Origin: Candidatus Gottesmanbacteria bacterium RIFCSPLOWO2_01_FULL_43_11b
GTDB taxonomy: Bacteria; Patescibacteriota; Microgenomatia; UBA10105; UBA927
Reading direction: 5' to 3'
Length of the DNA: 64,000 nucleotides
Assembly: GCA_001780985.1 (NCBI GenBank)
Contig: MFJV01000001.1
Coordinates: forward strand, 913,609-977,608
The position numbers and the translations under genes are program-made. Position 1 is the stretch's first letter. Every line of letters begins with the position of its first letter. Shown piece after piece: positions 1 through 52,832 of this stretch. The notes beneath the pieces are model-generated. The model had not been told where the DNA came from and made no database searches. It was given only the letters and a program-made list of their open reading frames with translations.

Positions 1-8
1 ACGCTCTC

Positions 9-983
9 ATGCTTTTGGCAGGGGGACAGATGGGAGTAGCGATGGCATATGCGATTGCACCGCTTGTTTTAACAAATCGTTGGATTTTTCCGGTACAAGT
101 CATGTTTGACCCGCGGATTGCACTGCTTACTCTCATTGTCGCCTTACGAAAAAATCCGAAACAGTTTATTGTTCCGGTTTTAGTAACAATAATAATCCAC
201 ACGTATTGGTGGGTACCGATACTCAAAAATCCCGCAATTGTCGGAACGCAATTTCAGGAAGCCACAAGTAGTGCAGTCAAATACTTAAGTTTCGCATCAT
301 TTTCCAATAGTCTAAGCTTTCTTCACCCTAATTGGCCTGAAAATATATTCGGGAAAGTGTATTTTCAAAGACCTGAATTTTTGATTATTCCGATCGTTGC
401 CTTTGCAGGATTACTGTTTAAGGCAAATGCCTATTACGCCTTGTTAGCACTCATTGGTGCATTTCTCGCTAAAGGCATCAATGAACCATTTGGCGGAATA
501 TATTTATGGCTTTTTGAAAATGTACCGGGGTTTAGTCTTTTCCGCGACCCCACAAAATTTTATCTCTATATCGCTCTTGGGTATTCAGTGTTAATTTCAC
601 GCATTAAAAAACCGATGTTAGTATTTCTCTTTCTTCTTTTTTGGGCATTTACCCTTCGGGAAGCGATTTTAGGATCATTACCGGGAACTTTTCAGCCGGT
701 TAAAGTGCCGAACGAATACACGAAACTTACGGGTGATAATGTGGGCTGGTATCCCAAAAAATCACGATTTAGCTTTAGCGGGAGTGATTTCATCTCACTT
801 GAAAATATTCGTTACGTTGCAGTACCAACAGATGTCCGCGGAGAAATTTTCGTAACAGACCGAAAGTATGATGAATCAAAACACCAGGACGCAATTTTAT
901 TCATTTCAACGATGTCAGGAGTCCGAAGACTTGACGAATATAAAGAACTAGCTGTGTTTGAAGTCTTCAAGGAGTCTCCTTGA
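9..983 (+). CDS. polytopic membrane protein, possibly 5'-truncated at window edge (GT-C-like C-terminal part?)
   Basis: ORF open to window start; multiple hydrophobic segments then a soluble C-terminal domain; lies in the glycan locus. Confidence 0.45.
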   Translation: MLLAGGQMGVAMAYAIAPLVLTNRWIFPVQVMFDPRIALLTLIVALRKNPKQFIVPVLVTIIIHTYWWVPILKNPAIVGTQFQEATSSAVKYLSFASFSNSLSFLHPNWPENIFGKVYFQRPEFLIIPIVAFAGLLFKANAYYALLALIGAFLAKGINEPFGGIYLWLFENVPGFSLFRDPTKFYLYIALGYSVLISRIKKPMLVFLFLLFWAFTLREAILGSLPGTFQPVKVPNEYTKLTGDNVGWYPKKSRFSFSGSDFISLENIRYVAVPTDVRGEIFVTDRKYDESKHQDAILFISTMSGVRRLDEYKELAVFEVFKESP

Positions 984-1671: not shown

Positions 1672-2646
1672 ATGAAGGTACTAATTACCGGTGGGGCGGG
1701 GTATATCGGGGCGATTACCAACGACTACCTAAAAAAACAAGACTACGAGACTGTGGTGTTTGACAGCCTCAAAAACGGGCACCGTGAGGCTATAGCAGGC
1801 ACAAAACTGGTCGTTGGTGATCTTACCATCAAAAGTGACATAGACGAGGTATTTAAGGCTGATACGTTTGATGCAGTTATCCATTTTGCAGCTTTAGCTC
1901 TGGCTCCGGAGTCAATGGAGAAGCCCTTTGAGTACTACCAAAATAATGTGTTGGGGAGCCTAAATCTTCTCGAATCCATGCGTAATGCAGGATGCAAGAA
2001 CCTGGTTTTTTCCTCAACCTGTGCTGTTTACGGCTATCCCAAGAAACTTCCGGTAACCGAGGATGAAAAAATAGCTCCGGAGAGTGTGTATGGGTCAAGC
2101 AAGCGCATTGTTGAGGAAATTATCGAGTGGTACGGACAAGTGTATGGGCTAAAATACATGAATCTTCGCTACTTTAACGCTGCAGGTGCTGCACTTGACG
2201 GCACACTCGGAGAAAATCACGCTGTTGAAACGCACATTATTCCAATACTTTTGGATGTCATCTCAGGCACGAGGAAAGTATTTGAACTATACGGTAAAGA
2301 TTATCCGACACCTGATGGCACGTGCATTCGCGACTATATTCATGTCGTTGATCTCGCACGAGCCCATGTTGCGGCACTGAAGGGTCAGTCGGGATCGGTT
2401 AATCTTGGTGTTGGCAAAGGGTATAGTAATCTTGAGGTTATCTCTGTGGTGGAAAAGGTCACCGGCAAAAAGGTTCCTGTTGAGGTAAAGTCACGTCGAC
2501 CGGGAGATCCGGCAAGTATTTATGCGGATAACACGAAAGCAAAGAAACTTCTCGGTTGGGAACCGAAACATTCTGATTTAGAAACCATTGTAGAGAGTGC
2601 GTGGAAGTATCATGAGAAGAGGATTCTCGATGAGAATAGGGATTGA
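1672..2646 (+). CDS. galE: UDP-glucose 4-epimerase
   Basis: N-terminal GGAGYIG Rossmann motif; short-chain dehydrogenase YxxxK context; length about 324 aa typical of GalE. Confidence 0.85.
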   Translation: MKVLITGGAGYIGAITNDYLKKQDYETVVFDSLKNGHREAIAGTKLVVGDLTIKSDIDEVFKADTFDAVIHFAALALAPESMEKPFEYYQNNVLGSLNLLESMRNAGCKNLVFSSTCAVYGYPKKLPVTEDEKIAPESVYGSSKRIVEEIIEWYGQVYGLKYMNLRYFNAAGAALDGTLGENHAVETHIIPILLDVISGTRKVFELYGKDYPTPDGTCIRDYIHVVDLARAHVAALKGQSGSVNLGVGKGYSNLEVISVVEKVTGKKVPVEVKSRRPGDPASIYADNTKAKKLLGWEPKHSDLETIVESAWKYHEKRILDENRD

Positions 2647-3151
2647 TATAAGTCAAATCGTGTACGAGGGGACCGGGGTAGGAAATTATGTCCGGCACAT
2701 GGTGACGGAACTTTTGAAACACGATACAAAGAATGAGTATGTTCTCTTTGGCGCTTCGCTCCGTCGACGAAAAGAATTCCGCGAATATTTTCCGAAAAAA
2801 CATCTTGTTATTGTTCCCATCCCACCAACCCTTCTCGATATTCTCTGGAACAGATTTCATATTTTTCCCGTTGAGTGGTTTACCGGGAGTCTTGATGTTT
2901 TTTGGAGCAGTGACTGGACACAGCCTCCTCTTATTCATGCCAAAGGAGTGACAACAATTCATGATTTAACTGTTTTTAGACATCCGGAGAGTTTCGTAAC
3001 AAAAATTATTGAAGTGCAAAGAAGAAGATTGACAAAAGCCGCAAAACTCTGCAGCGCCTTTTTTTGTGATTCTGAAGCAACAAAAAAAGATGCTATTGAA
3101 CTACTCGGAATACCGCAAAATAAACTATTTGTCGTTTACCCAGGCATATGA
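2630..3151 (+). CDS. GT4-family glycosyltransferase, N-terminal domain only (truncated or split)
   Basis: MRIGIDIS...GVGNY N-terminus paralogous to the GT4 genes at 3148 and 11860; ends at VYPGI exactly where the paralogues continue into the C-domain. Confidence 0.5.
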   Translation: MRIGIDISQIVYEGTGVGNYVRHMVTELLKHDTKNEYVLFGASLRRRKEFREYFPKKHLVIVPIPPTLLDILWNRFHIFPVEWFTGSLDVFWSSDWTQPPLIHAKGVTTIHDLTVFRHPESFVTKIIEVQRRRLTKAAKLCSAFFCDSEATKKDAIELLGIPQNKLFVVYPGI

Positions 3152-4206
3152 ATATCGCAATTGATGGTTACGAAGCAAATGTAAAAAATAGAGTCGGAAT
3201 TGGTCGGTATGCATTTGAAATTCTCTCGCACATCTATAACCTACAACCTAAGCACCTCTTCCGAATATACATCCCCTCCAAGCCGCTTCCCGATATGCCC
3301 AAAGAAACCTCATGGTGGAAATATAGAATTGTTCGACCCAAAACACTGTGGACTTTTTTCGGTTTACCGGGTGCGCTAACTAAAGACAAACCCGATGTTA
3401 TATTTTCGCCCACGCACTATGTGCCACGTTTCGTGAAAATCCCCCGGGTAATGGCAATAATGGATCTCTCATATTTAGAATACCCGGAATTATTTCGCAA
3501 ACAGGACCTCCATAAATTGAAAAACTGGACAGCATACGGTGCCTCGATTGCAAAGAAAATACTCACCATAAGTAACTTCAGTAAGAATGATATAATCAAA
3601 ACGTATAAAATAGATCCCGAGAAGGTTGTAGTCACATATCCAGGTATGAGTAAACAATTAATAAGCGAAGCTCCGGCAGAAAAAAACTATATTCTTTCGG
3701 TAGGGACAATCCAACCACGAAAGAATTACATTCGACTCATTGAGGCATTTTCCATGGTTCTTCCGAACTTTCCCGGCTTGAAACTCGTCATAATCGGAAA
3801 AAAAGGGTGGTTATTCGATGAAACACTTGAAGCACCTTCGAAATTCGGCATTCTAAAAGATGTGATATTTCTTCATAGTGTACAGGATACGCTGCTTAGT
3901 GGATTTTACCAACATGCAAAATGTTTGGTGCTCCCTAGCTTATATGAAGGATTTGGACTTCCTGTTTTGGAAGCCATGGCACTTAAGTGTCCTGTGGTTG
4001 TCAGCCGTATATCAAGCTTACCGGAGATTGCCGGGGATGCCGGCATTTACGTAGACCCGGAAAATGTTGAGAGCATAGCTGACGGCATAATCAAAGCATT
4101 AACCGAAAAAAACGATGACAGAATAAAAAAGGGACTCATTCAAGTCAAAAAATTTTCATGGGAAAAAGCGGCTCGACAAACACTGGAGGTTTTGGAAAGC
4201 ATATGA
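3148..4206 (+). CDS. glycosyltransferase family 4 (GT-B)
   Basis: GT4 N-domain plus C-terminal EGFGLPVLEAMA motif. Confidence 0.8.
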   Translation: MNIAIDGYEANVKNRVGIGRYAFEILSHIYNLQPKHLFRIYIPSKPLPDMPKETSWWKYRIVRPKTLWTFFGLPGALTKDKPDVIFSPTHYVPRFVKIPRVMAIMDLSYLEYPELFRKQDLHKLKNWTAYGASIAKKILTISNFSKNDIIKTYKIDPEKVVVTYPGMSKQLISEAPAEKNYILSVGTIQPRKNYIRLIEAFSMVLPNFPGLKLVIIGKKGWLFDETLEAPSKFGILKDVIFLHSVQDTLLSGFYQHAKCLVLPSLYEGFGLPVLEAMALKCPVVVSRISSLPEIAGDAGIYVDPENVESIADGIIKALTEKNDDRIKKGLIQVKKFSWEKAARQTLEVLESI

Positions 4207-4766
4207 GAGCTATCATTGATTTTTGGATTTTTCTTTGCACTCTGACGGGATTCATTCCCAGCCATACGATACGCCTTTTTTTGTATAGAATGCTGTTTCG
4301 CGTTCGTGTAGGCCGCAACTCCTCTGTTCACTGGCGTGCGCAATTCAATCAACCGGCAGGAGTTTCTATTGGCCACAATACCATTATTGGGAACGATGCG
4401 TTTTTGGACGGACGAATGAAAAACTTTCTTATCTGGCGAAAAAAGCACGGCTACCCATTAACAATCGGCAACAATGTTTCGATTGCGGGTGAAGTTCGGA
4501 TTTATACAATGGAACATGATGTCGACGATCCCGATTTTGCCGAAATCGGTGCTCCGGTTGTCATCGATGACTACGTCGTCATCGGGACTCGGGTAACAAT
4601 TCTTCCCGGAGTAACCATTGGAAAAGGAGCAGTTATTGCCTCTGGTGCAGTCGTCACCAAAGATGTCCCCTCATTTACAGTCGTCGGCGGTGTCCCTGCT
4701 CAATTTATTCGCAACCGCAACAAAAATCTTCGCTACACGCTCAAATTCGCCAAACTCTTTCAATAA
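4203..4766 (+). CDS. sugar O-acetyltransferase, hexapeptide-repeat (LbH) family
   Basis: Tandem [LIV]-G-x-x-x-x hexapeptide repeats (IGNNVSIAGEVRI...); WcaF/NeuD-like; ATGA overlap with upstream gene. Confidence 0.75.
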   Translation: MRAIIDFWIFLCTLTGFIPSHTIRLFLYRMLFRVRVGRNSSVHWRAQFNQPAGVSIGHNTIIGNDAFLDGRMKNFLIWRKKHGYPLTIGNNVSIAGEVRIYTMEHDVDDPDFAEIGAPVVIDDYVVIGTRVTILPGVTIGKGAVIASGAVVTKDVPSFTVVGGVPAQFIRNRNKNLRYTLKFAKLFQ

Positions 4767-5632
4767 TGGATCTTTCTATAGTTATCGTAAGTTTCAATAC
4801 GAAAAAACTTCTTGACGACTGTCTTTCTTCTGTGGAACGGAGTCTCAAAGATACGAATGTTTCGTATGAAGTGATTGTGGTCGATAATGTTTCTATTGAC
4901 GGAACTCGGGAAATGCTCAAAAAGAAATATCCACAGGTTCAAACCGTATTGAATTCGGAAAATGTCGGATTCGGCAGAGCAAATAATCAAGGTACGAGAA
5001 AGGCAAAAGGGGAGTATGTTTTTTATTTAAATTCGGATACCATCGTTTTGAATAAAGCGATAGCTAAACTTCTCTCTTTTGCCCGTCAGCACCCGAAACA
5101 TTTCGTGGGTCCAAAACTCCTCAATCTTGATCGAAGCCCGCAATCATCCTGCGGTCCGTTTTTTTCTCTCCCTGTTGTCTTTGCAGCACTTTTTTTAAGA
5201 GGAGATCGTATAGGACTCACCCGCTGGTCTCCAACTCGAACGCGGAAAGTTAGTTGGGTATCGGGGGCGGCTTTGATGGGACCGAGAAAACAACTCCTCG
5301 ATAACCTCCTCTTTGATGAAAAAATATTCATGTATATGGAAGAAATAGACCTCCTGTATAGGGCAAGAAAAAGAGGCTTTCGAACACTCTTTTACCCTAA
5401 GAGTGTGATTATACATTTGGGAAGTGGTAGTTCTACCAACAAAAAGAAAGGCCCCGTCCTCAATATTTATCGGGGTCTCATCTACTTTTATAAAAAGCAT
5501 CATCCATCATGGAAGGTTCGCATACTTCTATTTTTGCTCAAGGCTAAAGCTGCCATTGCGTGGTCTATCGGGGTAGTCAGCGGCAATTCATATCTCAAGG
5601 AAACATATGCAGAAGCTTTTTGGATCGCTTAA
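4766..5632 (+). CDS. glycosyltransferase family 2
   Basis: MDLSIVIVSFN...VVDNVSIDGT (DxD-type GT-A N-terminus); paralogue of the GT2 at 10994. Confidence 0.8.
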   Translation: MDLSIVIVSFNTKKLLDDCLSSVERSLKDTNVSYEVIVVDNVSIDGTREMLKKKYPQVQTVLNSENVGFGRANNQGTRKAKGEYVFYLNSDTIVLNKAIAKLLSFARQHPKHFVGPKLLNLDRSPQSSCGPFFSLPVVFAALFLRGDRIGLTRWSPTRTRKVSWVSGAALMGPRKQLLDNLLFDEKIFMYMEEIDLLYRARKRGFRTLFYPKSVIIHLGSGSSTNKKKGPVLNIYRGLIYFYKKHHPSWKVRILLFLLKAKAAIAWSIGVVSGNSYLKETYAEAFWIA

Positions 5633-8609
5633 ACAACACTGGGAGGAAATTGGGACGTTATTTTTGCTGGCATTTATCCCTCTCTACCCAAAACTTCCTT
5701 TATTTGACATTGTGCAAACATGGGTATACATACGGCTCGATGATTTTGTCGTATTACTCGTTGTTTTAGGGTTCTTATTAAAACTTTACAGGAGAAAATA
5801 TGTCCCCGATACTCCCTTAACAATCCCGATATTCATGTATTGGGCAGTAGGACTCGTATCTATAGCCTGGTCACTTGCATTCATAGGCCCCAAACTTTTA
5901 GGGTATTTTCCACAACTCGTTATTCTCCATTACCTCCGCCGTATTGAGTATATGATCGTATTTTTCCTGGCTTTAGTCGGCATGGGAAGCATCAAGTATA
6001 TACGTAAGTATCTTTTTGTATTTGCCATCACTCTATGTATCGTATCGCTCTATGGAATTGGCCAGCGGTACATGAGACTTCCGGCATTTTTGACCATGAA
6101 CGAGGAGTTTGCCAAAGGCACGCCCCTTATTCTTTCACCTACATCACGGATTACCTCAACATTTGCAGGCCACTATGATTTGGCAATGTATTTAGCATTT
6201 TCTGTAACACTATTTGCAAGCCTTCTCTTTTCTTTGCGGAGGGTTCTTTCAAAAGTTGTAGTTATTCTCCTCTGTGGTTTAGCAACGCTTGTTTTATTTT
6301 TGACGCAATCAAGGGTTTCTCTTTTTGCTCTTGCTTCCGGTGTTATCTTAGTTTTATGGTGGCATAATCAAAAAAAATGGATACTACCAGCAGTAGTATT
6401 GGTGCTTCTTGCCGTACCTTTCGTTCCGGGCCTCTCCGATCGTTTTGCAAAAACATTCAGAGATAAACCGGTTATTTATGATATTCGAGCAGGTGCGCCG
6501 ATTGGTGCCGCGAATATTTCAGATGACGGGCAAGTGACCATTGAGCAGTCAGCATCACCTGCTTTGGAGAATTTACCGATAGGATCAGGATTTATCCGTG
6601 CCCCGGGAGCTACGCGAATTCCGTTGATTTCCTCCTTTGCAGTGGGAGAACTTCGCGGTTCCCCAGATTATCCGTTCGGTCAAACCCCACCGGGCTTGGG
6701 TGAAGAGATGCAAATGGCGATGGAACGGGGTCAATTGTATCTTTCAATAAATTCACCGCTTAAAGCAACAGACGGGGAGGTCGCAAGCATGTCAGGGAGG
6801 TTTTATCTTGACCGTGCACTCCTCTATGACATTTCCTTTACTACACGTTTCCAAGGACAATGGCCAAGAGCATGGGAAGCATTTGGTCGCAATATTTTCT
6901 TCGGAAGCGGGTATTCAGTATTATCAGTTGCTGCAGACAGCGATTACCTGCGGGCGTTGGGGGAGACGGGACTTCTCGGACTGGGTAGTTTTCTATTTAT
7001 TCTTCTTATCTTTTTTATCTACACCCGTACTGCATTACCAAATGCTTCACCTTTGGTTCGCGCGATGACAATTGGCGTAAATGGGGGACTTGTCGGTCTC
7101 CTTATTACCGCGTCTCTTCTTGATGTTTTTGAAGCGTCCAAGATGGCGTATGTTTTTTGGCTCACTGTGGGGGCAACAATTGCAGGATTAGGGATTACCT
7201 ATAAGAAACAATTTAATCTTTGGAAACATGCCAGAGAAATTATTTCCCATCCGATTGTATTTATTATCCTTGTGGGGCTATTAGTACCGATTGTCTATGC
7301 AGGGGTAAATAGATTTTATTTTGTCGCTGATGATTTTACGTGGCTCCGGTGGGCCGGGGAGGCGAAACTGAGCGATCTTTCACGATACTTTCTCGACTCA
7401 ACAGGATTTTTCTACCGGCCGTTGACCAAATTATATTTTTATTTTGCGTCAATGGTATTTTGGCTAAAACCTGAAGGTTACCACAGTGTCAATCTCGTTT
7501 TGCACTTTGTTGGAACTGTGCTTGCCTATCTTATTGTCAGGCGACTTAAAAACACGATAGCAGCTATTCTGACAGCTTTATTTTTTCTTGTTGCCAGCAT
7601 TCACCATGAGAACGTTATTTGGATATCAGGAGTAAGCAGTTTAGCCGGAAGCGTGTTTGCGCTCCTCTCTCTTTATCTATGGATACTGCGTAGACCGGTA
7701 TTTAGTTTGACGTTTCTTATAACGAGCATGTTATTTTATGAGGAAATGATGTTTGTTCCACTCATACTTACCTCATACAGCTGGATTTTTTGGCCAAAAA
7801 AATCCCGAGTTGTCTCAACACTTCCGGCTCTCACAGTCCCGCTGTATTGGTGGCTTCGTTCTATGGCTCATGCCCTTTCACCAGGCGGAAGTTACGGAAT
7901 AAATCTTGCAGCGTTGCCATTTAATGCAGTTGGAAATATTGTCGGATACGTAGTCGTAACCATCATCGGGGCTTCAATGCTTGTTTGGTACGAATGGATG
8001 CGCGGGTTTATGAGAAATGAGCAACTTATCGCCGCACTTACCGTCACTATTGCACTTCTTGTATTCCTTTACTATCGCAAAAAGATACAGCTTTCAAAAC
8101 CCTCTCTCTTTTTCGTGATTTTTACCTGTATTGCGTTACTTCCTGCATTGGGGCTTGGAAATATTGCAGAGCGGTATGGATATCTTGCTTCAGTTGGCAT
8201 AAGTTTTCTTTTTGTGTCATTTGTTTTGTGGATGTTTCAACGCAGAAAAGTTATTGCAGTAGCCCTTTTTACATTAATTTTTGGGGCAAATTATTTGCAA
8301 CTTCAAAACTACATAACAGAGTGGCAACAAACAGGGAAAGTATCAGAGCGAATCCATTATGAACTGCGCAGAATGTACTATCCGATTGAACCGAATACTC
8401 ACTTTGTTGTTGCCAATGTGCCTACAAGAATTGGCCGTGCCTGGTTATTTCCTGTAGGATTAGAAGATGCTGCCTACCATGTGTTTTATGATTCGACGAT
8501 GAAACTTGATGTTGTGGGGAGTGCAGAAGATGCTCTTTCAGTAAAGGGAGCAAAAGCACTCACCATAGTTGATGATAAAGAATATCCAATAAGAGAATTA
8601 TATGAATAA
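5607..8609 (+). CDS. 1000-aa polytopic membrane protein: O-antigen ligase (WaaL/Wzy_C)-like domain fused to GT-C/PMT-like domain
   Basis: More than 20 predicted TM helices; N-half resembles the O-antigen-ligase family with a large periplasmic loop; C-half has GT-C-like helices and a soluble C-terminal domain. Confidence 0.55.
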   Translation: MQKLFGSLKQHWEEIGTLFLLAFIPLYPKLPLFDIVQTWVYIRLDDFVVLLVVLGFLLKLYRRKYVPDTPLTIPIFMYWAVGLVSIAWSLAFIGPKLLGYFPQLVILHYLRRIEYMIVFFLALVGMGSIKYIRKYLFVFAITLCIVSLYGIGQRYMRLPAFLTMNEEFAKGTPLILSPTSRITSTFAGHYDLAMYLAFSVTLFASLLFSLRRVLSKVVVILLCGLATLVLFLTQSRVSLFALASGVILVLWWHNQKKWILPAVVLVLLAVPFVPGLSDRFAKTFRDKPVIYDIRAGAPIGAANISDDGQVTIEQSASPALENLPIGSGFIRAPGATRIPLISSFAVGELRGSPDYPFGQTPPGLGEEMQMAMERGQLYLSINSPLKATDGEVASMSGRFYLDRALLYDISFTTRFQGQWPRAWEAFGRNIFFGSGYSVLSVAADSDYLRALGETGLLGLGSFLFILLIFFIYTRTALPNASPLVRAMTIGVNGGLVGLLITASLLDVFEASKMAYVFWLTVGATIAGLGITYKKQFNLWKHAREIISHPIVFIILVGLLVPIVYAGVNRFYFVADDFTWLRWAGEAKLSDLSRYFLDSTGFFYRPLTKLYFYFASMVFWLKPEGYHSVNLVLHFVGTVLAYLIVRRLKNTIAAILTALFFLVASIHHENVIWISGVSSLAGSVFALLSLYLWILRRPVFSLTFLITSMLFYEEMMFVPLILTSYSWIFWPKKSRVVSTLPALTVPLYWWLRSMAHALSPGGSYGINLAALPFNAVGNIVGYVVVTIIGASMLVWYEWMRGFMRNEQLIAALTVTIALLVFLYYRKKIQLSKPSLFFVIFTCIALLPALGLGNIAERYGYLASVGISFLFVSFVLWMFQRRKVIAVALFTLIFGANYLQLQNYITEWQQTGKVSERIHYELRRMYYPIEPNTHFVVANVPTRIGRAWLFPVGLEDAAYHVFYDSTMKLDVVGSAEDALSVKGAKALTIVDDKEYPIRELYE

Positions 8610-9918
8610 CAGAAAAATAATATTTTTCATAATTTTTATCCTGACGGTGGCGCTTCGTCTGTATCGAATTGATGCACCGCTGGGGGACTGGCACAGTTGG
8701 CGGCAGTCTGATACTGCCTCAGTGGCCAGAAATTACCTGAAATTCGGTTTTGATCCGCTTCGCCCCCGTTACGATGATCTTTCAAGCATTCCGTCGGGTC
8801 TTGATAATCCCATGGGATACCGTATGGTTGAATTCCCACTCTATCAGTTGATTAGCGCAGGTTTAGCAAAGACATTCCCGCAATACTCTGTGGAGGTGTG
8901 GCTCCGGTTGGTCACAGTTGCAGCTGCAGCAGGGACGGCAGTGCTTTTATCCCGAATAAACCTTGTGGCGGGATTTGTTTATGCAGTTCTTCCATATAGT
9001 ATTTTTTTCGGAAGAACAATCCTACCGGAAACGTTTGCAGTTTTTTGGGCAATATTAAGCTTATCTTTATTACCAAAGCGGGTCGTATTGGCCGCTATTG
9101 CGGGGGCATTAGCATTATTAGTAAAACCAACGACAGGTTTTTTACTCCTACCCGTAGTCTATCTGCTTCGTAGAAATATTATTCAATTATTCTTTTACTC
9201 TGTTATTTCATTATTGCCTTTTGTGCTTTGGCGACAATGGATATCTCAATTTCCTGAAGGCATCCCCGCGTATACCTGGCTTCTTAACTCCAATAATATT
9301 CGATTTAAAGGTGCATGGTTCCATTGGTTATTTGCAAAAAGAATAGGAGAATTGATGCTTGGATTTTGGGGCTTAATCCCATTTGCCCTTGGTATTTCAG
9401 CTTTTTGGGGTATCGGCGCACTTTTATACCTCGTTGTATTTGCTACAGGCAACGTTCAACATGATTACTATCAAATTCTTCTTCTTCCAGCAGTTTGTAT
9501 CTTTGTCGGAAAAGGACTGCGACGTCTTCCTTGGTTTTTAGCATCCGTCTCATTTTTATTTATGCTTGCCTTTTCCTGGTATACAATTCGCACGTACTAC
9601 TGGATTAACCGCCCGGATATAGTTGAAGCCGGAAAACTGGCTGACCAAATATTACCTAAAAACGCCAAAGTAATTGCGCCATATAACGGTGATACAACGT
9701 TTTTGTATCAAACCAATCGTCAGGGTTGGCCCATTGGATTTGATATCGAGAAAAAGCTTAAAATGGGTGCAACAGCCTACGTGACGGTTTCTCCTACTGA
9801 TAATGATACAGAAACAAAACAACTTGCAAACTGCTATACCGTACTTGTTCGTAATGACCGCTACGCCATTATCGATCTTACCAAACCTACAAAAATCTGC
9901 ACAATCACAAATCCATGA
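8602..9918 (+). CDS. GT-C glycosyltransferase (family 39 / ArnT-PMT-like)
   Basis: N-terminal LRLYRIDAPLGDWHSWRQSDTA motif typical of ArnT/PMT-type GT-C enzymes; about 11 TM helices. Confidence 0.65.
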   Translation: MNNRKIIFFIIFILTVALRLYRIDAPLGDWHSWRQSDTASVARNYLKFGFDPLRPRYDDLSSIPSGLDNPMGYRMVEFPLYQLISAGLAKTFPQYSVEVWLRLVTVAAAAGTAVLLSRINLVAGFVYAVLPYSIFFGRTILPETFAVFWAILSLSLLPKRVVLAAIAGALALLVKPTTGFLLLPVVYLLRRNIIQLFFYSVISLLPFVLWRQWISQFPEGIPAYTWLLNSNNIRFKGAWFHWLFAKRIGELMLGFWGLIPFALGISAFWGIGALLYLVVFATGNVQHDYYQILLLPAVCIFVGKGLRRLPWFLASVSFLFMLAFSWYTIRTYYWINRPDIVEAGKLADQILPKNAKVIAPYNGDTTFLYQTNRQGWPIGFDIEKKLKMGATAYVTVSPTDNDTETKQLANCYTVLVRNDRYAIIDLTKPTKICTITNP

Positions 9919-11009
9919 AAATTCTTTTTGTTTCAGCAGTACTTCCATGGCCGCTTCATTCAGGGGGACAAATACGAATATACAATCTCTTAAAACGCTT
10001 GGGGAAGAAACACGAAATAACACTTGTCTCATTCATTCGACACCCTGAAGAACTTTCATATCTTAAAGAACTTTCATTTTGCCGATACGTATACATGATC
10101 CACCGCGGATCTGCATGGCAGCCTCGGTACATAATGAGTACCGCCGGCAGATATCCGTTTTTATTGGCAACGTACAACAATGCGGAAATGAAAAATCTTA
10201 TTACCGGTCTTATGAAAAAAAATACGTATGATCTTATTCACCTCGAGCCTTTCTACGTTTGGCCGTCACTGCCCAAAACAGAAACCCCGGTTATCGTTGG
10301 AGAACATAACATCGAATATGAAATATACCAAGAGTACGTGCGACGGTTTCCAATTTTACCCCTGCGGCCATTTTTATATCTCGACACAATCAAGCTCAAA
10401 TTTTGGGAGGAATATGTGTGGCGCAAAGCTTCCGCGATTACCGCTGTTTCAGAACATGATAAAAAGGTAATTCGTAAAGTAAATAGCAACGTTTACCCTG
10501 TGCCGAATGGTGTCGACATACAGTCATTTCCATTCAAACCTAAGAAAACAAGAAGACTTCTGTTTTTGTATACGGGAAATTTTAAATGGATGGAAAACAG
10601 AGATGCGGCTCAAAATATTGTCCAAAATTACTGGCCAACGATTAAAAAGCAGTACCCTAACGCAAGGCTTCGAATTGTAGGCAAGGGTGCGCCGGATGGT
10701 GGGGTTGCAAGTATTGTCGATGAGTTACACAATGCCGATATTATGTTGGCTCCGATTCGGATTGGCGGCGGAACAAAATTTAAGATTCTTGAAGCGATGG
10801 CAACGGGATTGCCGGTTGTCACGACGACTGTTGGTGCGCAAGGTTTGGATACCGACTGTTTGTGGATCGCGGACCACGTCGATCAATTGAATATCGCCGA
10901 GGTTCTCAAGGATACGAAAAAAATAAAAAAGGCAAGGGATGTAGTCGAACAGCAATACAATTGGGATAAAATTACTTTACAGTTAGATCACGTATGGACC
11001 TCTCTATAG
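9915..11009 (+). CDS. glycosyltransferase family 4
   Basis: GT-B fold; C-terminal KILEAMATGLPVV motif. Confidence 0.8.
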   Translation: MKILFVSAVLPWPLHSGGQIRIYNLLKRLGKKHEITLVSFIRHPEELSYLKELSFCRYVYMIHRGSAWQPRYIMSTAGRYPFLLATYNNAEMKNLITGLMKKNTYDLIHLEPFYVWPSLPKTETPVIVGEHNIEYEIYQEYVRRFPILPLRPFLYLDTIKLKFWEEYVWRKASAITAVSEHDKKVIRKVNSNVYPVPNGVDIQSFPFKPKKTRRLLFLYTGNFKWMENRDAAQNIVQNYWPTIKKQYPNARLRIVGKGAPDGGVASIVDELHNADIMLAPIRIGGGTKFKILEAMATGLPVVTTTVGAQGLDTDCLWIADHVDQLNIAEVLKDTKKIKKARDVVEQQYNWDKITLQLDHVWTSL

Positions 11010-11863
11010 TCATTCTCAATTACAACACTGTTGACTTGACACGGATATGTCTCCAAACAGTGTTTGCCTCCAACCTCGGAAAATATACCATGGAAGTAAT
11101 TGTATGCGATAACGGCAGTAGCGACGGAAGTTTGGAGATGATTAAGAAAGAATTCCCTCAGGTAATCCTCATCGATAACAAAAAAAATCTGGGCTTTGCG
11201 GCAGGGAATAATCCCGGGATAAAACGGGCAAAGGGCAGGTATATTCTTCTCCTAAACACCGATATAGAAATTCCGAAAGATACAATTCGGGTGATGCTCG
11301 AGTTTATGGACGGCAGTCCTCAAGTAGGAGTATCAACATGTAAACTACAGCTGCCCGAAGGCTCCATGGACCCTGCCTGTCACAGGGGATTCCCAACACC
11401 TTGGGCAGCATTTACGTACATGAGTGGTCTGGAAAAAATATTTCCCCACACAAAACTTTTCGGAGAGTATCACCAGGGATATAAAGATTTAAAAACCATT
11501 CATGAAGTTGATTGCATCGTTGGTGCATTTTTCCTGGTGAGAAGAGAAGTAATTAAAGAGGTTGGACTACTTGATGAAGACTATTTTATGTATGCAGAAG
11601 ATATTGATTGGTGTTACCGGATAAGAGAGGCAGGTTGGAAGATTATGTTCAATCCAAAAGTTACAATGCTCCATAAGAAAAAACAAAGCGGACGGGCAAA
11701 TATTTTGCGCAAACGCCGCGTCATAACGGAGATCTATTTCCATAAATACAACTGGCTTTTTTACAAAAAGCACTATGCGAAAAAATACGGATCCTTTGTT
11801 TCCATACCCGTCAATATCTTCTACGCGACACGTTTATTTTTTCTTGAAAAACTCGGTCTATGA
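10994..11863 (+). CDS. glycosyltransferase family 2
   Basis: MDLSIVILNYN...VCDNGSSDGS; paralogue of the GT2 at 4766. Confidence 0.8.
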   Translation: MDLSIVILNYNTVDLTRICLQTVFASNLGKYTMEVIVCDNGSSDGSLEMIKKEFPQVILIDNKKNLGFAAGNNPGIKRAKGRYILLLNTDIEIPKDTIRVMLEFMDGSPQVGVSTCKLQLPEGSMDPACHRGFPTPWAAFTYMSGLEKIFPHTKLFGEYHQGYKDLKTIHEVDCIVGAFFLVRREVIKEVGLLDEDYFMYAEDIDWCYRIREAGWKIMFNPKVTMLHKKKQSGRANILRKRRVITEIYFHKYNWLFYKKHYAKKYGSFVSIPVNIFYATRLFFLEKLGL

Positions 11864-12900: not shown

Positions 12901-13945
12901 CCGTGTAAATAAATGGGGAGGGGCGGAGAGGGTGCTGCTGGCACTCCATGAGATTTGGCCTGATGCGCCGCTCTATACAGCTGTCTACGATGAAAAACAA
13001 GCCCCCTGGGCAAAGGTTTTTCAAGTAAAACCATCTTTTTTACAGCACTTTCCCTTTGCCAAAAGCTACCACGAACTCTACCCGTGGTTAACTCCCATGG
13101 CTTTTGAGACGTTTAATTTTGGTGAGTTTGACGTAGTCATTTCCATAACGAGCGCAGAAGCCAAAGGTATTATCACAAAGCCAAAAACACTCCATATCTG
13201 CTATTGTCTTACCCCAACTCGCTACCTTTGGAGCGGGAAAGATGTATACGAGAACACTCCCGGAATGTGGGGACTTGGTTTACGCGTGTGGGGACCAACA
13301 CTTCGAAAATGGGATCTTGTAGCATCAAGTCGCCCCGATCACTACATAGCAATCTCAAAACGGGTGAAAGATAGAATTAAGAAATATTATCAAAGGGATT
13401 CTGACGTTATCTATCCTCCGGTAGATATCTTTCAATCAACAAGCAGTAAAAGCGAATATTTTCTTGTTGTTTCACGGTTCGTCGGTTATAAAAGAGTCGA
13501 TATTATTATTGATGCTTTTAACCATCTCGGATGGCCTTTAGTCATTATTGGAGACGGATTACAGAGAAAAGAACTGCAGGAAAGAGCCGATAAAAACATC
13601 CGATTTATCGATCGGCATTTGACAGAAGAAGAATTACACGCCTATTATGGAAATTGCCGAGCACTTATCTCCGCTGCAGACGAAGATTTTGGTATTGCAG
13701 CAGTTGAAGCAATGGGTGCCGGCAAACCGGTTATCTCATTTTCGGAAAGCGGAATCTCGGAAGTCGTTGAATCAGGGAAAACCGGTATTTTTTTTGAAGA
13801 ACAAAACAAACGTGCTATTATCAGTGCTCTTCAAACGTTTATTAAAAAAAGATTCGATCCGGAATTTTGCAGGAAACAAGCACAGCGGTTTGCCAAAGAA
13901 AGATTTAAGAAAGAATTTAAGAATAAAATACTTTCACTCGTATGA
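12878..13945 (+). CDS. glycosyltransferase family 4
   Basis: ATG 12878 (MKVALVYD...); GT-B; AAVEAMGAGKPVI motif. Confidence 0.8.
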   Translation: MKVALVYDRVNKWGGAERVLLALHEIWPDAPLYTAVYDEKQAPWAKVFQVKPSFLQHFPFAKSYHELYPWLTPMAFETFNFGEFDVVISITSAEAKGIITKPKTLHICYCLTPTRYLWSGKDVYENTPGMWGLGLRVWGPTLRKWDLVASSRPDHYIAISKRVKDRIKKYYQRDSDVIYPPVDIFQSTSSKSEYFLVVSRFVGYKRVDIIIDAFNHLGWPLVIIGDGLQRKELQERADKNIRFIDRHLTEEELHAYYGNCRALISAADEDFGIAAVEAMGAGKPVISFSESGISEVVESGKTGIFFEEQNKRAIISALQTFIKKRFDPEFCRKQAQRFAKERFKKEFKNKILSLV

Positions 13946-15015
13946 AGACAATTATTTTTGCAGGAGGGGTTGGGACAAGACTATGGCCGCTTTCACGGAA
14001 AAAATCTCCCAAGCAATTTGAGAAAATTATCGGAAATAAATCCACGCTGCAGCTTGCAGCCGAACGCCTCCAGCCTGATTTTCCGTGGGATACCCTTTAT
14101 GTTTCAACGGGCAAAGCATACGTTTCCACAGTTGCTGACCAACTGGCAAAAGTTCCTGAGAGTCACATTATAGGGGAGCCTGAAATGCGTGACGTTGGTC
14201 CTGCGGTGGGGCTTATGACTGCACTACTTGCGCGTGAATCTCCCAATGAACCTATGGCTATTATTTGGAGTGATCATCTCGTCAAAAACGTAGAATTATT
14301 TCGCAAAATTCTGGTTAACGCCGGAAAAATTATAGAAAAAAAGGGAGACCGGATTGTTTTTGTTGCACAAAAACCCCGCTTTGCAAGTGAGAATCTTGGC
14401 TGGATAGAGTATGGGAAAGAAGTTATACGAGAAAATGGTACTGCATTTCATGAATTCGTTGATTTCCAGTATAGACCGGACCCGGAAACTGCAAAAAAGT
14501 ATTATAAGAGCGGCCACCACGCATGGAATCTTGGATATTTCGTTACCACCCCCAAGTTCTTATGGTCTCTCTATGAACGGTTTGTACCAAATCTTGCAAA
14601 GGGACTAAAAGATATTGTAAAAAGCGAAAAATTTCAACAGACTCTGGAAAAAATATATCCAACGCTTGAAAAAATAAGCTTTGATAATGCAATTTTAGAG
14701 AGTCTCAATCCGAAAGATGCACTTGTTATCTCAGAAAATATTGAATGGAGTGATATAGGAGCCTGGGAAGCGCTTAAAGAAGCACTTGAAAATAGCACGG
14801 ATAAAAACGTAACGCAGGGAAAAGTCATGCTTACGGATACGAGCGATAGTCTCGTTTATAACTACACAAATCAAACAGTCACCACGATCGATGTAAAAGG
14901 AATGCTCGTTGTTGTTACCGATGACGTTGTGTTGGTTTGCCCGAAAGGATCAGTCCCCAAAATCAAAAAATTCGTTGAAAGTCTCTCGGGCACAAAAAAC
15001 GAACATCTTGTTTAA
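13942..15015 (+). CDS. manC: mannose-1-phosphate guanylyltransferase
   Basis: IIFAGGVGTRLWPLSR nucleotidyltransferase motif characteristic of ManC/GMP. Confidence 0.8.
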   Translation: MKTIIFAGGVGTRLWPLSRKKSPKQFEKIIGNKSTLQLAAERLQPDFPWDTLYVSTGKAYVSTVADQLAKVPESHIIGEPEMRDVGPAVGLMTALLARESPNEPMAIIWSDHLVKNVELFRKILVNAGKIIEKKGDRIVFVAQKPRFASENLGWIEYGKEVIRENGTAFHEFVDFQYRPDPETAKKYYKSGHHAWNLGYFVTTPKFLWSLYERFVPNLAKGLKDIVKSEKFQQTLEKIYPTLEKISFDNAILESLNPKDALVISENIEWSDIGAWEALKEALENSTDKNVTQGKVMLTDTSDSLVYNYTNQTVTTIDVKGMLVVVTDDVVLVCPKGSVPKIKKFVESLSGTKNEHLV

Positions 15016-15022
15016 ACAACCC

Positions 15023-15661
15023 ATGCTGTATTCTTTTACAAAACGAATTATTGATATTGTGGGAGCAACGATTCTCCTCATTTTCTTTTTCCCCATATGT
15101 ATTCTGGTAGCACTCGCCATAAAACTTGACCGACCCGGACCGATTTTTGCCGATACGCCGGAGCGTGTTGGGCAAGGCGGAAAGCCATTTAAACTTTTTA
15201 AATTCCGCTCCATGATAATGAACGCACACAAAAAATTACGGCAGGATCCGCGAATGGCACGGCTCTATCAGGAGTATAAGCGGGGTAGCTACAAGTTACG
15301 TCATGATCCCCGGGTAACCCGAGTCGGCAGGTTTATCAGAAAGCACTCACTCGATGAAATCCCCCAACTACTTAATGTTTTACGGGGCGATATGAGTTTG
15401 GTCGGTCCGAGGCCGTACTACCCGGACGAACTAGTTGAACAACAACGGAAATACCCGAACACAAAAAATCTCGTCAAAGTAGTGCTTTCGGCAAAACCCG
15501 GGATAACAGGCTACTGGCAGGTATCAGGGAGAAGCGAGGTCAATTTTGATAAACGGATTAAAATGGATGCAGATTACGTCAAGAGGGAATCGTTATTTCT
15601 TGACCTCCTCATTCTCGCCAAAAGCCCCTGGGCTATGATTTCCGGAAAGGGTGCAGTTTGA
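15023..15661 (+). CDS. initiating phosphoglycosyl transferase (bacterial sugar transferase, WbaP/PglC-like)
   Basis: ATG 15023; single N-terminal TM then conserved KRIIDIV...DRPGPIF...KFRSM sugar-transferase core. Confidence 0.8.
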   Translation: MLYSFTKRIIDIVGATILLIFFFPICILVALAIKLDRPGPIFADTPERVGQGGKPFKLFKFRSMIMNAHKKLRQDPRMARLYQEYKRGSYKLRHDPRVTRVGRFIRKHSLDEIPQLLNVLRGDMSLVGPRPYYPDELVEQQRKYPNTKNLVKVVLSAKPGITGYWQVSGRSEVNFDKRIKMDADYVKRESLFLDLLILAKSPWAMISGKGAV

Positions 15662-15693: not shown

Positions 15694-15936
15694 ATGACGG
15701 GCCGACTATTTAAGGAATCGATTAACGACGAACAGAGTATCAATTTTTTTCAGGACGGTGCAGTTTTCTATACGGCTGATGCCGGAAGACTCCCAATAAC
15801 CATTAAGTTTAAGAAAGAGGGGTTTACTGTTATCTATCGAGAATCAAGAGGGGTAGAAAATCACCAACCTCCCATTGATGTGAACCCGACAGAAACTTTT
15901 GAGTTGGCATCGGGAAAAATCCTTCTTGCAGAATAA
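15694..15936 (+). CDS. hypothetical small protein (80 aa)
   Basis: ORF only; the upstream sequence ttagcgccatga is shared with the start of the 21937 paralogue gene. Confidence 0.3.
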   Translation: MTGRLFKESINDEQSINFFQDGAVFYTADAGRLPITIKFKKEGFTVIYRESRGVENHQPPIDVNPTETFELASGKILLAE

Positions 15937-15985
15937 TTTTCTCCCCCCGTTGACAAATTACCCTGAAACAGGAACAATATATAAC

Positions 15986-17938
15986 ATGCCCGATGAGCTT
16001 AAAAAAATAGATTTACCAATAGACTCCCCAATCAAGCCGGAATCTCCAAAGCGCAAAATTAACTGGAAAAAGTTGAAGGTGCCTGCAATTATAATTGGCG
16101 CAATTTTTCTCCTCCTTCTCATTCTCCTTTTACCCCTTCGAGGCGTTATTGCCCAAGGACGGCAGGCGGTTGCGGCTGGCAGGCTGTTATTAGAAGCAGC
16201 TAAAAATCAGGATTTAGCTAAAGCCAAAGAAGGACTGGCCGCAACAAGAAAAGAATTAGAAGACGTACAGCGAGAATTTAATAAGATTAGATTTCTCAAG
16301 TTTATTCCGTATATCGCTGATTTAGAGCATGGGATTAATGCTGCACTTGCCGGAATTTCTGCAGGAGACAAAGCGATTGAAGCGCTCGAACCAAATGCGG
16401 ACCTTTTGGGACTCAAAGGGGAGAGTAAGTTTGTGCAGGGATCAGCAGATGACCGCATCCAAACAGCAGTCAAAACAATGAGCGCCTTAACTCCGAAAGT
16501 TAACGAAATGGCATTGCACATCGATACATTACGAAAAGAACTTAACCAGATTAATCCGAACCGCTATCCAAAAAAGATTGGCAAAACCGTGATACGCGAG
16601 CGTCTTGCATCCACTAAAGAAACAGTTGAAAACGCAGCAAATTTATTCGTCAATGCCCAGCCACTTCTTATAAACCTTCCTGCAATGCTTGGGGAACCAC
16701 AAACAAGACGGTATCTCATCCTTTTCCAAAATGACAAAGAACTTCGGGCAACCGGCGGATTTATTACTGCTTATGCCCAGTTTCGTCTGGAGCGGGGCAA
16801 GATGATTTTAGAAAGAGCCGATGATATTTATAATCTCGACAACGCAAAACGAAAAACTTTTCCAGCTCCCCGCGAGATTACAACATTTCATAAAGGCGTC
16901 TATACGTTAAATATCAGAGATAGCAACCTTTCACCTGACTTTAAACTTTCCATGCAAAAATTTGAGGAGATTTATGACACAGTGAGCGGGAAAGAAGCAA
17001 TTGACGGAATTATCACTGTTGATACACATGTCTTGGTTGAGGCATTCAAGATTCTTGGTCCAATGAACGTTTACGGCCGAGAATTTAGTGCAGAAATTGA
17101 TAAGCGTTGTGACTGCCCGCGAGCGGTTTATGAACTTGAGGATTATTCAACCAGGCCGGTAGGATACGTCCGCGACGCACGGAAAGATATTATTGGTGTA
17201 CTTTTGCAGTCACTCATGCAAAAAGCACTCGGCGTCTCACCATCTCAATATTGGGGGAAACTTTTCCAGATGTTAATTGCTGAAATTAACCAAAAGCATG
17301 TGTTGGGTTACTTCCTTGAAGAAAACGCCCAAAAGGCAGCAGAGAGCTTTAACATGGCAGGCCGGATTATGACCGCAACCGAAACCGCAACACTTCTTAA
17401 ATACCAAGAAGGAGGATGGGATTATATTCACATCAATAACAGCAATATGGCTGGGGCAAAAGCGAACATGTTTGTCTCCCAAAAGGTGACCAAAGATACG
17501 ACAGTAAATGGCAACACGGCAACAACAAAGCTTACGGTTGAATATAAAAATCCGTATCCGGGCAGCGACTGCGGACTGGAAAGCGGGGGGCTATGTCTTA
17601 ATGCACCTCTTCGAAACTGGGTGAGAATTTACGTACCGGCAGGCAGTAAACTAACGGAGAGTAAAGGCAGCCAATCGCCTAAAGATAATCAGCCAGTGCC
17701 ATTGGACGCCTACGATGATCTCGGTAAAACCGTTTTTGAAGGGTTTCTCATAGTCAATCCTATGGGAACAGCACGACTGGATCTTACCTATACTTCACCC
17801 GTTAAATCAGAAGACGGTAAATACCACCTTCTCATCCAGAAACAGCCAGGAACTGAAGGAGACGAGTGGTTGATGAAATTAGCAGGTCGAGAAAAAAAGA
17901 AATTCATGCTCGAAACAGATACAGAACTTGCCCTCTAA
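15986..17938 (+). CDS. large membrane-anchored extracytoplasmic protein of unknown function (possibly DUF4012-like)
   Basis: ATG 15986; N-terminal TM anchor, coiled-coil region, then a large soluble domain; follows the glycan locus. Confidence 0.5.
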   Translation: MPDELKKIDLPIDSPIKPESPKRKINWKKLKVPAIIIGAIFLLLLILLLPLRGVIAQGRQAVAAGRLLLEAAKNQDLAKAKEGLAATRKELEDVQREFNKIRFLKFIPYIADLEHGINAALAGISAGDKAIEALEPNADLLGLKGESKFVQGSADDRIQTAVKTMSALTPKVNEMALHIDTLRKELNQINPNRYPKKIGKTVIRERLASTKETVENAANLFVNAQPLLINLPAMLGEPQTRRYLILFQNDKELRATGGFITAYAQFRLERGKMILERADDIYNLDNAKRKTFPAPREITTFHKGVYTLNIRDSNLSPDFKLSMQKFEEIYDTVSGKEAIDGIITVDTHVLVEAFKILGPMNVYGREFSAEIDKRCDCPRAVYELEDYSTRPVGYVRDARKDIIGVLLQSLMQKALGVSPSQYWGKLFQMLIAEINQKHVLGYFLEENAQKAAESFNMAGRIMTATETATLLKYQEGGWDYIHINNSNMAGAKANMFVSQKVTKDTTVNGNTATTKLTVEYKNPYPGSDCGLESGGLCLNAPLRNWVRIYVPAGSKLTESKGSQSPKDNQPVPLDAYDDLGKTVFEGFLIVNPMGTARLDLTYTSPVKSEDGKYHLLIQKQPGTEGDEWLMKLAGREKKKFMLETDTELAL

Positions 17939-17942
17939 CTCC

Positions 17943-18506: not shown

Positions 18507-18515
18507 AATTTATCT

Positions 18516-37093: not shown

Positions 37094-37104
37094 TACCTAT
37101 ATAT

Positions 37105-37443: not shown

Positions 37444-37444
37444 T

Positions 37445-38365: not shown

Positions 38366-38385
38366 GAATGTAGTACAATCGTTTT

Positions 38386-52776: not shown

Positions 52777-52832
52777 ACCCGAACAAATTTTCTCAAGAAA
52801 ACTTGCGCGGGTTGACATTGAAAAGGGTCCAC

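Follow-up and report, generated by a model that had tools for sequence, protein, structure and literature searches.

A conserved WaaL-like/GT-C_A membrane glycosyltransferase fusion in a GT-C-rich glycan locus of Microgenomates

What does a single polypeptide do that combines two different kinds of membrane glycosyltransferase (GT), in a glycan-assembly locus where no flippase is seen? The question is raised by a stretch of 64,000 nucleotides from Candidatus Gottesmanbacteria bacterium RIFCSPLOWO2_01_FULL_43_11b (contig MFJV01000001.1, positions 913,609 to 977,608; the whole stretch is here called the window), in which the open reading frame (ORF) at 5607–8609 encodes a protein of 1000 residues, hereafter the fusion. 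Our analysis indicates that the fusion is probably a bifunctional extracytoplasmic enzyme, in which the en-bloc transfer of a glycan from undecaprenyl diphosphate (Und-PP) is coupled to the transfer of a single sugar from a lipid-phosphate donor. The parts of the fusion that carry this reading are the following, with positions in the window and residue numbers in amino acids (aa); TM stands for transmembrane.

5607..8609, + strand: fusion protein, 1000 aa, about 25 predicted TM helices, N-terminus inside and C-terminus outside
5607..7211, + strand: N-module, predicted 12-TM GT-C_B, WaaL/Wzy_C-like, aa 1–535
6456..6827, + strand: beta-rich insertion, aa 284–407, family-specific, with strands assigned by DSSP in the AlphaFold2 (AF2) model
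6828..6995, + strand: predicted Wzy_C catalytic loop, aa 408–463, to which profile positions 78–149 of Wzy_C in family member P0113 map
7212..8606, + strand: C-module, predicted 13-TM GT-C_A, aa 536–1000, including a small C-terminal alpha/beta domain at aa ~930–1000
7329..7334, + strand: D575-D576, candidate catalytic acid pair where the first extracytoplasmic loop of the C-module begins

The fusion is genuine. A word-indexed search found 1623 homologues, and the best 120 of these (apart from the partial sequences P0008 and P0048) are about 1000 aa long, cover 93–100% of the query and are 37–70% identical to it. Relatives are present in at least 349 species-level genomes in a scan of one genome per species, and the protein is intact in 77 of the 80 loci that were fetched; two copies are cut by contig ends and one is split at about aa 230, off the domain boundary. 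The unusual length of the ORF, and nothing else, would suggest an assembly or annotation artefact merging two genes. The chance of this is negligible, as the same continuous ORF occurs in independent ENA, Logan, JGI and NCBI assemblies, the AF2 model built with 119 full-length homologues as input is one compact protein (pLDDT 87.9, pTM 0.88), and the conservation of the fusion across genomes rules an assembly artefact out. The informative record titles of the genomes concerned are those of Gottesman-, Levy(i)- and Woesebacteria, Microgenomates and Patescibacteria. Many metagenome-assembled genomes among the loci L007–L086 carry the title “uncultured Gammaproteobacteria bacterium”, and L075 is titled “Candidatus Sulfotelmatobacter sp.”; these titles contradict the gene content and are placeholders or reflect mis-binning. 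Public annotations call members of the family “O-antigen ligase family protein”, “tetratricopeptide repeat protein” or hypothetical.

The two halves were assigned by fold comparison together with Pfam. Searches against the PDB chains with the fusion itself (phmmer), with a 36-sequence profile and with a profile of standalone relatives of the C-half gave no relevant match at E ≤ 10, and comparison of the predicted fold was alone in linking the fusion to solved structures. The model matched WaaL on the one hand and GT-C_A enzymes on the other, with about 300–370 residues aligned in each case. Since Pfam Wzy_C lies in the N-half, and given the lengths of these alignments, the WaaL match would fall in the N-half and the GT-C_A matches in the C-half. 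The family member P0113 supports the assignment by acting as a sequence bridge, having both Wzy_C and PMT_2 in one protein, the latter with 27.5 bits (gathering score 26.1) over the equivalent of window aa 614–748. In the window protein, Wzy_C (PF04932) matches aa 222–332 with 39.2 bits against a gathering score of 31.7, and 31 of 36 aligned family members match it at E ≤ 0.1. The topology was predicted from the DSSP helices of the model and from counts of lysine and arginine in the loops of a 119-sequence alignment; it places the N-terminus inside, with 12 TM helices in the N-module and 13 in the C-module, the latter number after parity correction for loop helices at 650–671. The initial annotation of this DNA had described a ligase-like N-half and a GT-C/PMT-like C-half in one polypeptide with more than 20 TM helices. 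Pfam, the predicted folds and the count of about 25 helices agree with that description, and with Wzy_C above threshold the protein is not a single ordinary family without a ligase-like segment.

The N-module is predicted to have the 12-TM fold of WaaL. Its long extracytoplasmic loop (aa 273–454) is retained across the 119 aligned sequences, over which all residue conservation in the fusion was scored, with a mean length of about 155 aa, and it houses the beta-rich insertion. The loop predicted to be catalytic reads R414-x-Q-x-x-W419-P420...G433-x-G435...D444-S-D-Y-L-R-A-L-G-E453-T-G455-L-L-G458, and its R414, D444, E453, G455 and G458 are invariant. The invariant polar residues of the N-module include R43, D46, R111-R112, E114, N165-E166, K170, R181, R236, R279, D408, R414, R428, D444, R449, E453, D506 and K512, and in the model they map to outer loops or to the outer ends of helices.

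In WaaL, two conserved arginines bind the diphosphate of Und-PP (R191 and R265 in 7TPG), and the catalytic histidine of the ligases precedes the LxxxxExGxxG helix (H313 in 7TPG), whereas SEDS proteins and inverting polymerases have Asp or Glu at the position of the ligase histidine, plus one or two conserved arginines (PMC10920833). In the fusion, R236 (in TxSR, where the Wzy_C profile begins) and R414 (in RxQxxWP, before GxG) are both invariant and stand at the motif positions expected for diphosphate-binding arginines. The N-module loop contains no histidine conserved across the 119 sequences; D444 is invariant instead, and the motif register and the Pfam profile coordinates suggest that it occupies the position of the ligase histidine. 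With that register, D444, R236 and R414 would correspond to the acid-plus-arginine arrangement of inverting Wzy-type polymerases and SEDS proteins (clan GT-C1). Because of the Asp in place of His we do not classify the N-module as a true O-antigen ligase; judged by its sequence it would be a WaaL-fold enzyme with a polymerase/SEDS-like acid. Since its superfamily includes Wzy polymerases and D444 is invariant, a Wzy-type polymerisation step appears as likely as a ligase step. For the same reasons, the earlier statement that the pathway would not follow a classical Wzx/Wzy route is not upheld.

The C-module is predicted to have the GT-C_A fold. In the window protein, this half (aa ~536–1000) has no Pfam or NCBIfam match even at E = 10, and the PMT_2 (PF13231) threshold, below which the window copy falls, is passed by one of 36 family members. 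The extracytoplasmic region after TM1 of GT-C enzymes carries donor binding and catalysis (PMC11127046). D575-D576 follow directly on TM1 (549–563) in the model, ahead of short loop helices at 576–585 and 588–596, and would thus represent the acidic residue found in the first loop of GT-C_A enzymes; D576 is invariant, and D575 is present in more than 90% of the sequences. The other conserved residues of the module are R604-P605, E668 (in “HHENV”), W672, N773, N777, R799 and E855-R856-Y857, with R604, E668 and R856 invariant and E855 and Y857 kept in more than 90%.

The failure of the window C-half against all Pfam and NCBIfam models, and the lack of a sequence-level link to any solved GT-C enzyme, would also be expected if this half were a catalytically dead GT-C scaffold or acceptor-binding domain serving the N-module. 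We consider this very improbable: D576 (with D575), R604, E668 and R856 (with E855 and Y857) lie where the active site of a GT-C_A enzyme is expected, and the motifs FVxDDFxWL, FYRPL and HxExVxWIS are common to the fusion and to standalone relatives. The reverse arrangement, a dead N-module serving the C-half, is opposed by the equally good conservation of the N-module. Both modules are catalytically plausible, with conserved residues that face the outside in the model. Relatives of the C-half are numerous, as this half retrieved 7810 proteins from genome representatives at E ≤ 1e-3 and 68 at E ≤ 1e-30, including, among the matches listed, at least 37 complete standalone proteins of 430–560 aa. 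PMT_2 was recognised in four of 40 standalone relatives and C-terminal tetratricopeptide repeats (TPRs) in two of 40. Standalone paralogues also occur in related loci (L068:2811-4577 and L077:2020-3672).

Two further GT-C-like genes flank this part of the window:

8602..9918, + strand: PMT_2/GT39-like GT-C_A enzyme, 438 aa (ORF 8602)
3..983, + strand: polytopic protein, putatively of an AftD-like family, the C-terminal 326 aa of a 433-aa protein whose full gene is L001:8011-9312

The genes are closely packed on the + strand: the fusion ORF begins 26 nt within the upstream GT2 gene (4766..5632), and ORF 8602 starts 8 nt ahead of the stop codon of the fusion. A homologue of ORF 8602 lies directly 3' of the fusion in 65 of the 70 loci with room for it. 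PMT_2 was found in 28 and PMT in 15 of 41 such homologues, which are 57–84% identical to ORF 8602; the window copy has no Pfam match of its own. It has 438 aa where most homologues have ~480, a difference of about 40 residues, and copies of ~431–450 aa escape Pfam detection. Its AF2 model (pLDDT 75.8, with weak confidence at aa 220–287) matches ALG12 in Foldseek (E 3.6e-6, TM-score 0.60) and also STT3, PglB and ALG9, from which a GT-C_A fold follows. ORF 8602 is thus a second GT-C enzyme behind the fusion, as first proposed, but it cannot be called a paralogue of the C-half: BLASTP gave E 2.1 and hhalign a probability of 8.8%, there is no homology in the TM core, and the GT-C_A fold is all that the two have in common. 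The hhalign signal (E 0.0037) involves the C-terminal regions alone and is too weak for homology. The stretches concerned, fusion aa ~905–955 (window ~8320–8470) and ORF 8602 aa 338–381 (window ~9614–9745), contain “W..AG...FVNxPxRxGRAWxFPxGL” and “EAG..AD...YQTxRQGWPxGFD”, respectively, and run up to the soluble C-terminal domains.

The protein ending at 983, which the initial annotation counted as a third enzyme of the same PMT-like type, is indeed GT-C-like, but it probably belongs to an AftD-like family. The 433-aa protein has no Pfam match of its own; it is related by BLASTP (E 2e-8) to the adjacent 1111-aa protein upstream, with which it shares one 65-member cluster and which passes the Pfam GT-C_AftD model (PF11847) with 27.3 bits against a gathering score of 26. 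Most members of the family have 640–720 aa, and the 433-aa copy may be truncated or minimal. The region still further upstream was followed in a close relative (L088; 78% identity in a methyltransferase), where two tandem C-half paralogues of 555 and 565 aa (g555 and g565) lie ~12–16 kb upstream of the fusion, with a polytopic protein of 493 aa and another two PMT_2 proteins further out. Taken together, the extended region has roughly eight or nine GT-C modules arrayed about a single WaaL-like one. L088 also contains, between the AftD-like genes and that of the epimerase, pairs of NTP_transf_2/Polbeta and HEPN genes that resemble toxin-antitoxin systems (17853-19968), which are absent in the window genome.

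The remaining genes of the locus are the following:

1672..2646, + strand: GalE, UDP-glucose 4-epimerase (NCBIfam TIGR01179, 396 bits, cut-off 262)
2630..3151, + strand: orphan GT4 N-domain protein, 173 aa (Pfam Glyco_transf_4 alone)
3148..4206, + strand: GT4 glycosyltransferase (Pfam Glycos_transf_1, 2.2e-35)
4203..4766, + strand: hexapeptide-repeat acetyltransferase of WcaF/Maa type (Pfam Hexapep; NCBIfam WcaF-family subfamily at 3.9e-24, below cut-off)
4766..5632, + strand: GT2 glycosyltransferase (Pfam Glycos_transf_2), one C-terminal TM helix at aa 253
9915–11009, + strand: GT4 (Pfam, start-codon check, conserved order)
10994–11863, + strand: GT2 (same basis)
11860–12900, + strand: GT4 (same basis)
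12878–13945, + strand: GT4 (same basis)
13942..15015, + strand: ManC-type mannose-1-phosphate guanylyltransferase (Pfam NTP_transferase and ManC_GMP_beta-helix)
15023..15661, + strand: initiating phosphoglycosyltransferase (PGT), small Bac_transf type, 212 aa (Pfam Bac_transf, 3.1e-61)
15899..17938, + strand: DUF4012 membrane-anchored protein, 679 aa (Pfam DUF4012), one N-terminal TM helix

Together these genes encode the cytoplasmic machinery for a lipid-linked oligosaccharide, with a hexose-1-phosphate-type PGT, five GT4-type genes, two GT2 genes, the acetyltransferase, ManC and a GalE equivalog, and the Pfam and NCBIfam assignments of the PGT, ManC, GalE and the GT4 and GT2 enzymes support the lipid-linked pathway that had been proposed from the letters of the window. 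The PGT additionally matches NCBIfam EPS_sugtrans and the C-terminal region of WbaP, and its ATG at 15023 fits homologues of 211–215 aa. Neither GT2 could be recognised as a polyprenyl-phosphate sugar synthase in PDB and NCBIfam searches, which gave generic matches (DPMS 26.9 bits, ArnC 22.8 bits). The orphan GT4 N-domain precedes a complete GT4 and is a separate gene in nearly all of the 80 loci; in several relatives the equivalent of the GT4 at 11860–12900 is itself divided into N-domain and C-domain genes (L003:16273-17266, L005:16447-17512, L006:16452-17448). The arrangement looks like a conserved split GT-B of the Alg13/Alg14 style and not like a pseudogene. The DUF4012 gene is the constant last gene, following the PGT in nearly all loci that are long enough. 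Its product has no sequence match in the PDB; DUF4012 is described in the literature as enriched in bacteria of the candidate phyla radiation (CPR) and in Gram-positive bacteria and as linked to exopolysaccharide clusters, including one of Bifidobacterium, and the protein may be a chain-length or export accessory. Two tiny hydrophobic ORFs of 85 aa (958–1215) and 70 aa (1212–1424), called in the ENA and Logan copies, lie between the GT-C-like gene and galE; the sole match for either is that of the 85-aa protein to Na_Ca_ex, which at E 0.03 and 14.7 bits stays below the cut-off of 24.9.

The order of these genes is nearly invariant. GalE stands at the head of a conserved neighbourhood of about 14 genes, in which the orphan GT4 N-domain, GT4, hexapeptide acetyltransferase, GT2, fusion, PMT-like protein, GT4, GT2, GT4, GT4, ManC, PGT and DUF4012 genes follow each other, and then recO. 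The near-invariant order and wide retention indicate a vertically inherited core locus, placed next to housekeeping genes, and not a variable capsule or O-antigen island. They point to a core pathway for a cell-envelope glycopolymer of Microgenomates.

The initial annotation reported no Wzx or ABC exporter in the window and suggested a look just upstream of it. Its statement is right for the neighbourhood covered by our scans, which in this genome amounts to ~82 kb of ~1 Mb, and it also applies throughout the clade. A Pfam scan of all window ORFs with at least five predicted TM helices detected no Wzx or ABC exporter, the polytopic proteins other than GT-C being MraY, two SEDS proteins and one transporter of the MFS family 43 kb away, and the ABC signature LSGGQ is absent from every frame of the window. 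There is no Polysacc_synt, MurJ, ABC-2 or GtrA protein in the 8.3 kb upstream of the window, nor in a further ~10 kb in the close relative and in four annotated loci of distant relatives, and within ±10 kb of the fusion in 80 related genomes no Wzx, MurJ, ABC or GtrA protein was found. Forty unassigned polytopic ORFs from ~80 loci yielded EamA in four, PMT_2 in two, and one each of DUF2079, MBOAT, Acyl_transf_3 and YfhO. As for the partners of a Wzy polymerase, Polysacc_synt, MurJ and Wzz were absent from the window, from L001 and from these 40 ORFs, and the scans of the locus and of the upstream sequence found no GtrA, SMR or MATE protein near the GT-C genes.

Several membrane proteins at the edges of the conserved block have no family assignment. 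A 107-aa protein (L001:7686-8009, ~320–640 nt upstream of the window) is encoded between the 1111-aa AftD-like protein and the 433-aa protein; with four TM helices predicted by eye, its size and topology resemble flippases of lipid-linked sugars of the SMR or GtrA type, and it has no family match at E ≤ 1. L004 and L005 have proteins of 121–122 aa at the same position. Two families without Pfam matches occur upstream of the block: family X (~620 aa, 12–13 TM helices; L012, L013, L019, L033, L034, L048, L050, L071, L076), which hhalign relates to the AftD-like family with a probability of 79.6%, and the polytopic family Y (~527 aa; L003, L006, L045, L046, L053, L056, L066, L082, L084), possibly a flippase or a further GT-C enzyme.

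These scans bear on the most ordinary explanation of the locus, in which the N-module is the Wzy polymerase of a standard Wzx/Wzy pathway with its flippase encoded elsewhere, the C-module is a side-branch decorator fused to it incidentally, and nothing is mechanistically new. We consider this a serious rival, though rather unlikely. An Asp at the histidine position is the state of inverting polymerases and SEDS proteins (PMC10920833), a PGT accompanied by GT genes is how repeat-unit synthesis is usually encoded, and the part inspected is only ~82 kb of a genome of ~1 Mb. On the other hand, no Wzx or chain-length regulator is present in any of the 80 syntenic loci. Loci of the Wzx/Wzy type normally include wzx. 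The near-invariance of the present locus is also at odds with typical Wzy-dependent loci, and the strict retention of the fusion in at least 349 species argues for functional coupling of the two modules over an incidental fusion.

Alternatively, the locus could serve protein O-glycosylation, the N-module being an O-oligosaccharyltransferase of PglL/WsfB type that acts on Ser, Thr or Tyr of secreted proteins (S-layer proteins, pilins or others), and the C-module and ORF 8602 being O-mannosyltransferases of PMT type. We regard this too as a serious rival, but as unlikely. The Asp inferred from the register would replace the catalytic His typical of ligases and O-oligosaccharyltransferases, the conserved locus encodes no candidate acceptor protein, and the fusion has neither the MIR domains of PMT enzymes nor TPRs. 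ArnT, ALG12 and AftA, which act on lipids or polysaccharides, score almost as well in the fold comparison.

The reading that we favour is coupled transfer by the two modules outside the membrane. Microgenomates and other CPR bacteria have a single membrane. GT-C_B enzymes use diphosphate-linked donors, and GT-C_A enzymes typically use monophosphate-linked ones. In the sequence of steps that we infer, the PGT at 15023 and the GT4 and GT2 enzymes would assemble an O-acetylated oligosaccharide containing hexose and mannose on Und-PP in the cytoplasm, and a flippase would export it. In the N-module, R236 and R414 would hold the diphosphate and D444 would act as the base, and the glycan would be moved as a whole, in ligase mode to an acceptor that may be a lipid, a protein or a wall polymer, or in polymerase mode to a further repeat unit. 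The C-module, with D575-D576, R604, E668 and R856, would transfer a single sugar, probably a hexose such as mannose, from a polyprenyl-monophosphate donor, thereby priming the acceptor or decorating the product. The fusion would couple the two transfers physically, as in WadA, and ORF 8602 and the upstream AftD-like proteins would add extra sugars outside the membrane. A more specific version, which we consider unlikely, makes the fusion the central machine of a pathway peculiar to Microgenomates. Its GT-C_A module would take a primer sugar from a lipid-monophosphate donor and lay it down on a lipid or protein, the Asp-using WaaL-like module would ligate or polymerise the Und-PP-linked oligosaccharide onto this primer, and the part of the flippase would be played by a protein of a novel kind, either one of the conserved unassigned polytopic or small membrane proteins or the GT-C_B module itself.

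Comparison with known systems places the fusion between several of them. It differs from WaaL (GT121, GT-C_B; 7TPG and 7TPJ) in the invariant D444 at the apparent position of the ligase histidine, in the beta-rich insertion of ~120 aa in the loop, and in being joined to a second, 13-TM enzyme. Its host, moreover, is bounded by one membrane and would presumably lack a lipid A-core acceptor, although no search for lipopolysaccharide genes was made. Compared with the Wzy polymerases (clan GT-C1) and the SEDS proteins RodA and FtsW (GT119), the N-module is nearer to WaaL than to SEDS in sequence and structure, and neither Wzx nor a chain-length regulator is nearby. WadA of Brucella and Mesorhizobium is the nearest precedent for coupled priming and ligation. 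It combines a GT121 O-antigen ligase domain with a GT25 domain responsible for the final core sugar, so that, as proposed here, a ligase-type module is joined to a glycosyltransferase acting on the same acceptor (PMC10920833). Unlike the soluble GT-A partner in WadA, which uses nucleotide sugars, the partner in the fusion is a 13-TM GT-C_A module with a presumably lipid-linked donor outside the membrane.

The C-half of the window protein differs from PMT, ArnT and PMT_2 proteins (GT39, GT83) and from the TPR-bearing, TMTC-like GT-C enzymes in falling below every Pfam threshold, in ending with a small alpha/beta domain alone, and in its position downstream of a GT-C_B module. Where a GT-C enzyme adds single sugars from a lipid-monophosphate donor, its usual partners are a small flippase and a GT2 synthase (PMC11127046, PMC8035078). 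The locus resembles such three-component systems (GtrA/GtrB/Gtr*; CsbB/GtcA/YfhO; a polyprenyl-phosphoribose synthase with a MATE flippase and GT136) in having GT-C enzymes for single sugars and adjoining GT2 genes; unlike them, it showed no GtrA, SMR or MATE protein and no GT2 assignable as a lipid-phosphate sugar synthase, and its GT-C enzyme is fused to a ligase-like module. With the mycobacterial GT-C arrays for arabinogalactan, lipomannan and lipoarabinomannan (AftA-D, EmbA-C, PimE, MptA/B) it shares many clustered GT-C genes and ManC, as well as the AftD-like 1111-aa and 433-aa proteins and, in the close relative, two PMT_2 proteins and two C-half paralogues. It is found in another phylum, however, shows no evidence of arabinose or decaprenyl donors, and includes the WaaL-like module and a Bac_transf PGT.

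Both modules of the fusion come from known superfamilies, and the protein is not a new kind of enzyme. We found no description of a GT-C_B and GT-C_A fusion in the searchable literature, nor of the Asp-for-His state, the beta-rich insertion or the central place of such a protein in a clade-wide, flippase-less, GT-C-rich locus. A large part of bacterial diversity belongs to the CPR, and almost no work exists on the envelopes of these cells. The locus provides a near-invariant, GT-C-rich unit of glycan assembly, whose central enzyme unites both classes of membrane glycosyltransferase in a single polypeptide. The fusion is an expressible target for asking which surface polymer is made, how en-bloc and single-sugar transfer are coupled, and which flippase handles the lipid-linked intermediates.

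The window also contains division and cell-wall genes, in which no MurJ was found among the 64 kb. At 34057–41889, 48159–49208 and 52803–54089 it encodes a Mur ligase, a FemAB-family protein, diacylglycerol kinase, MraY, FtsW and MurG, and the same regions include a second SEDS gene and an MFS/ATG22-like transporter adjoining a HAD hydrolase.

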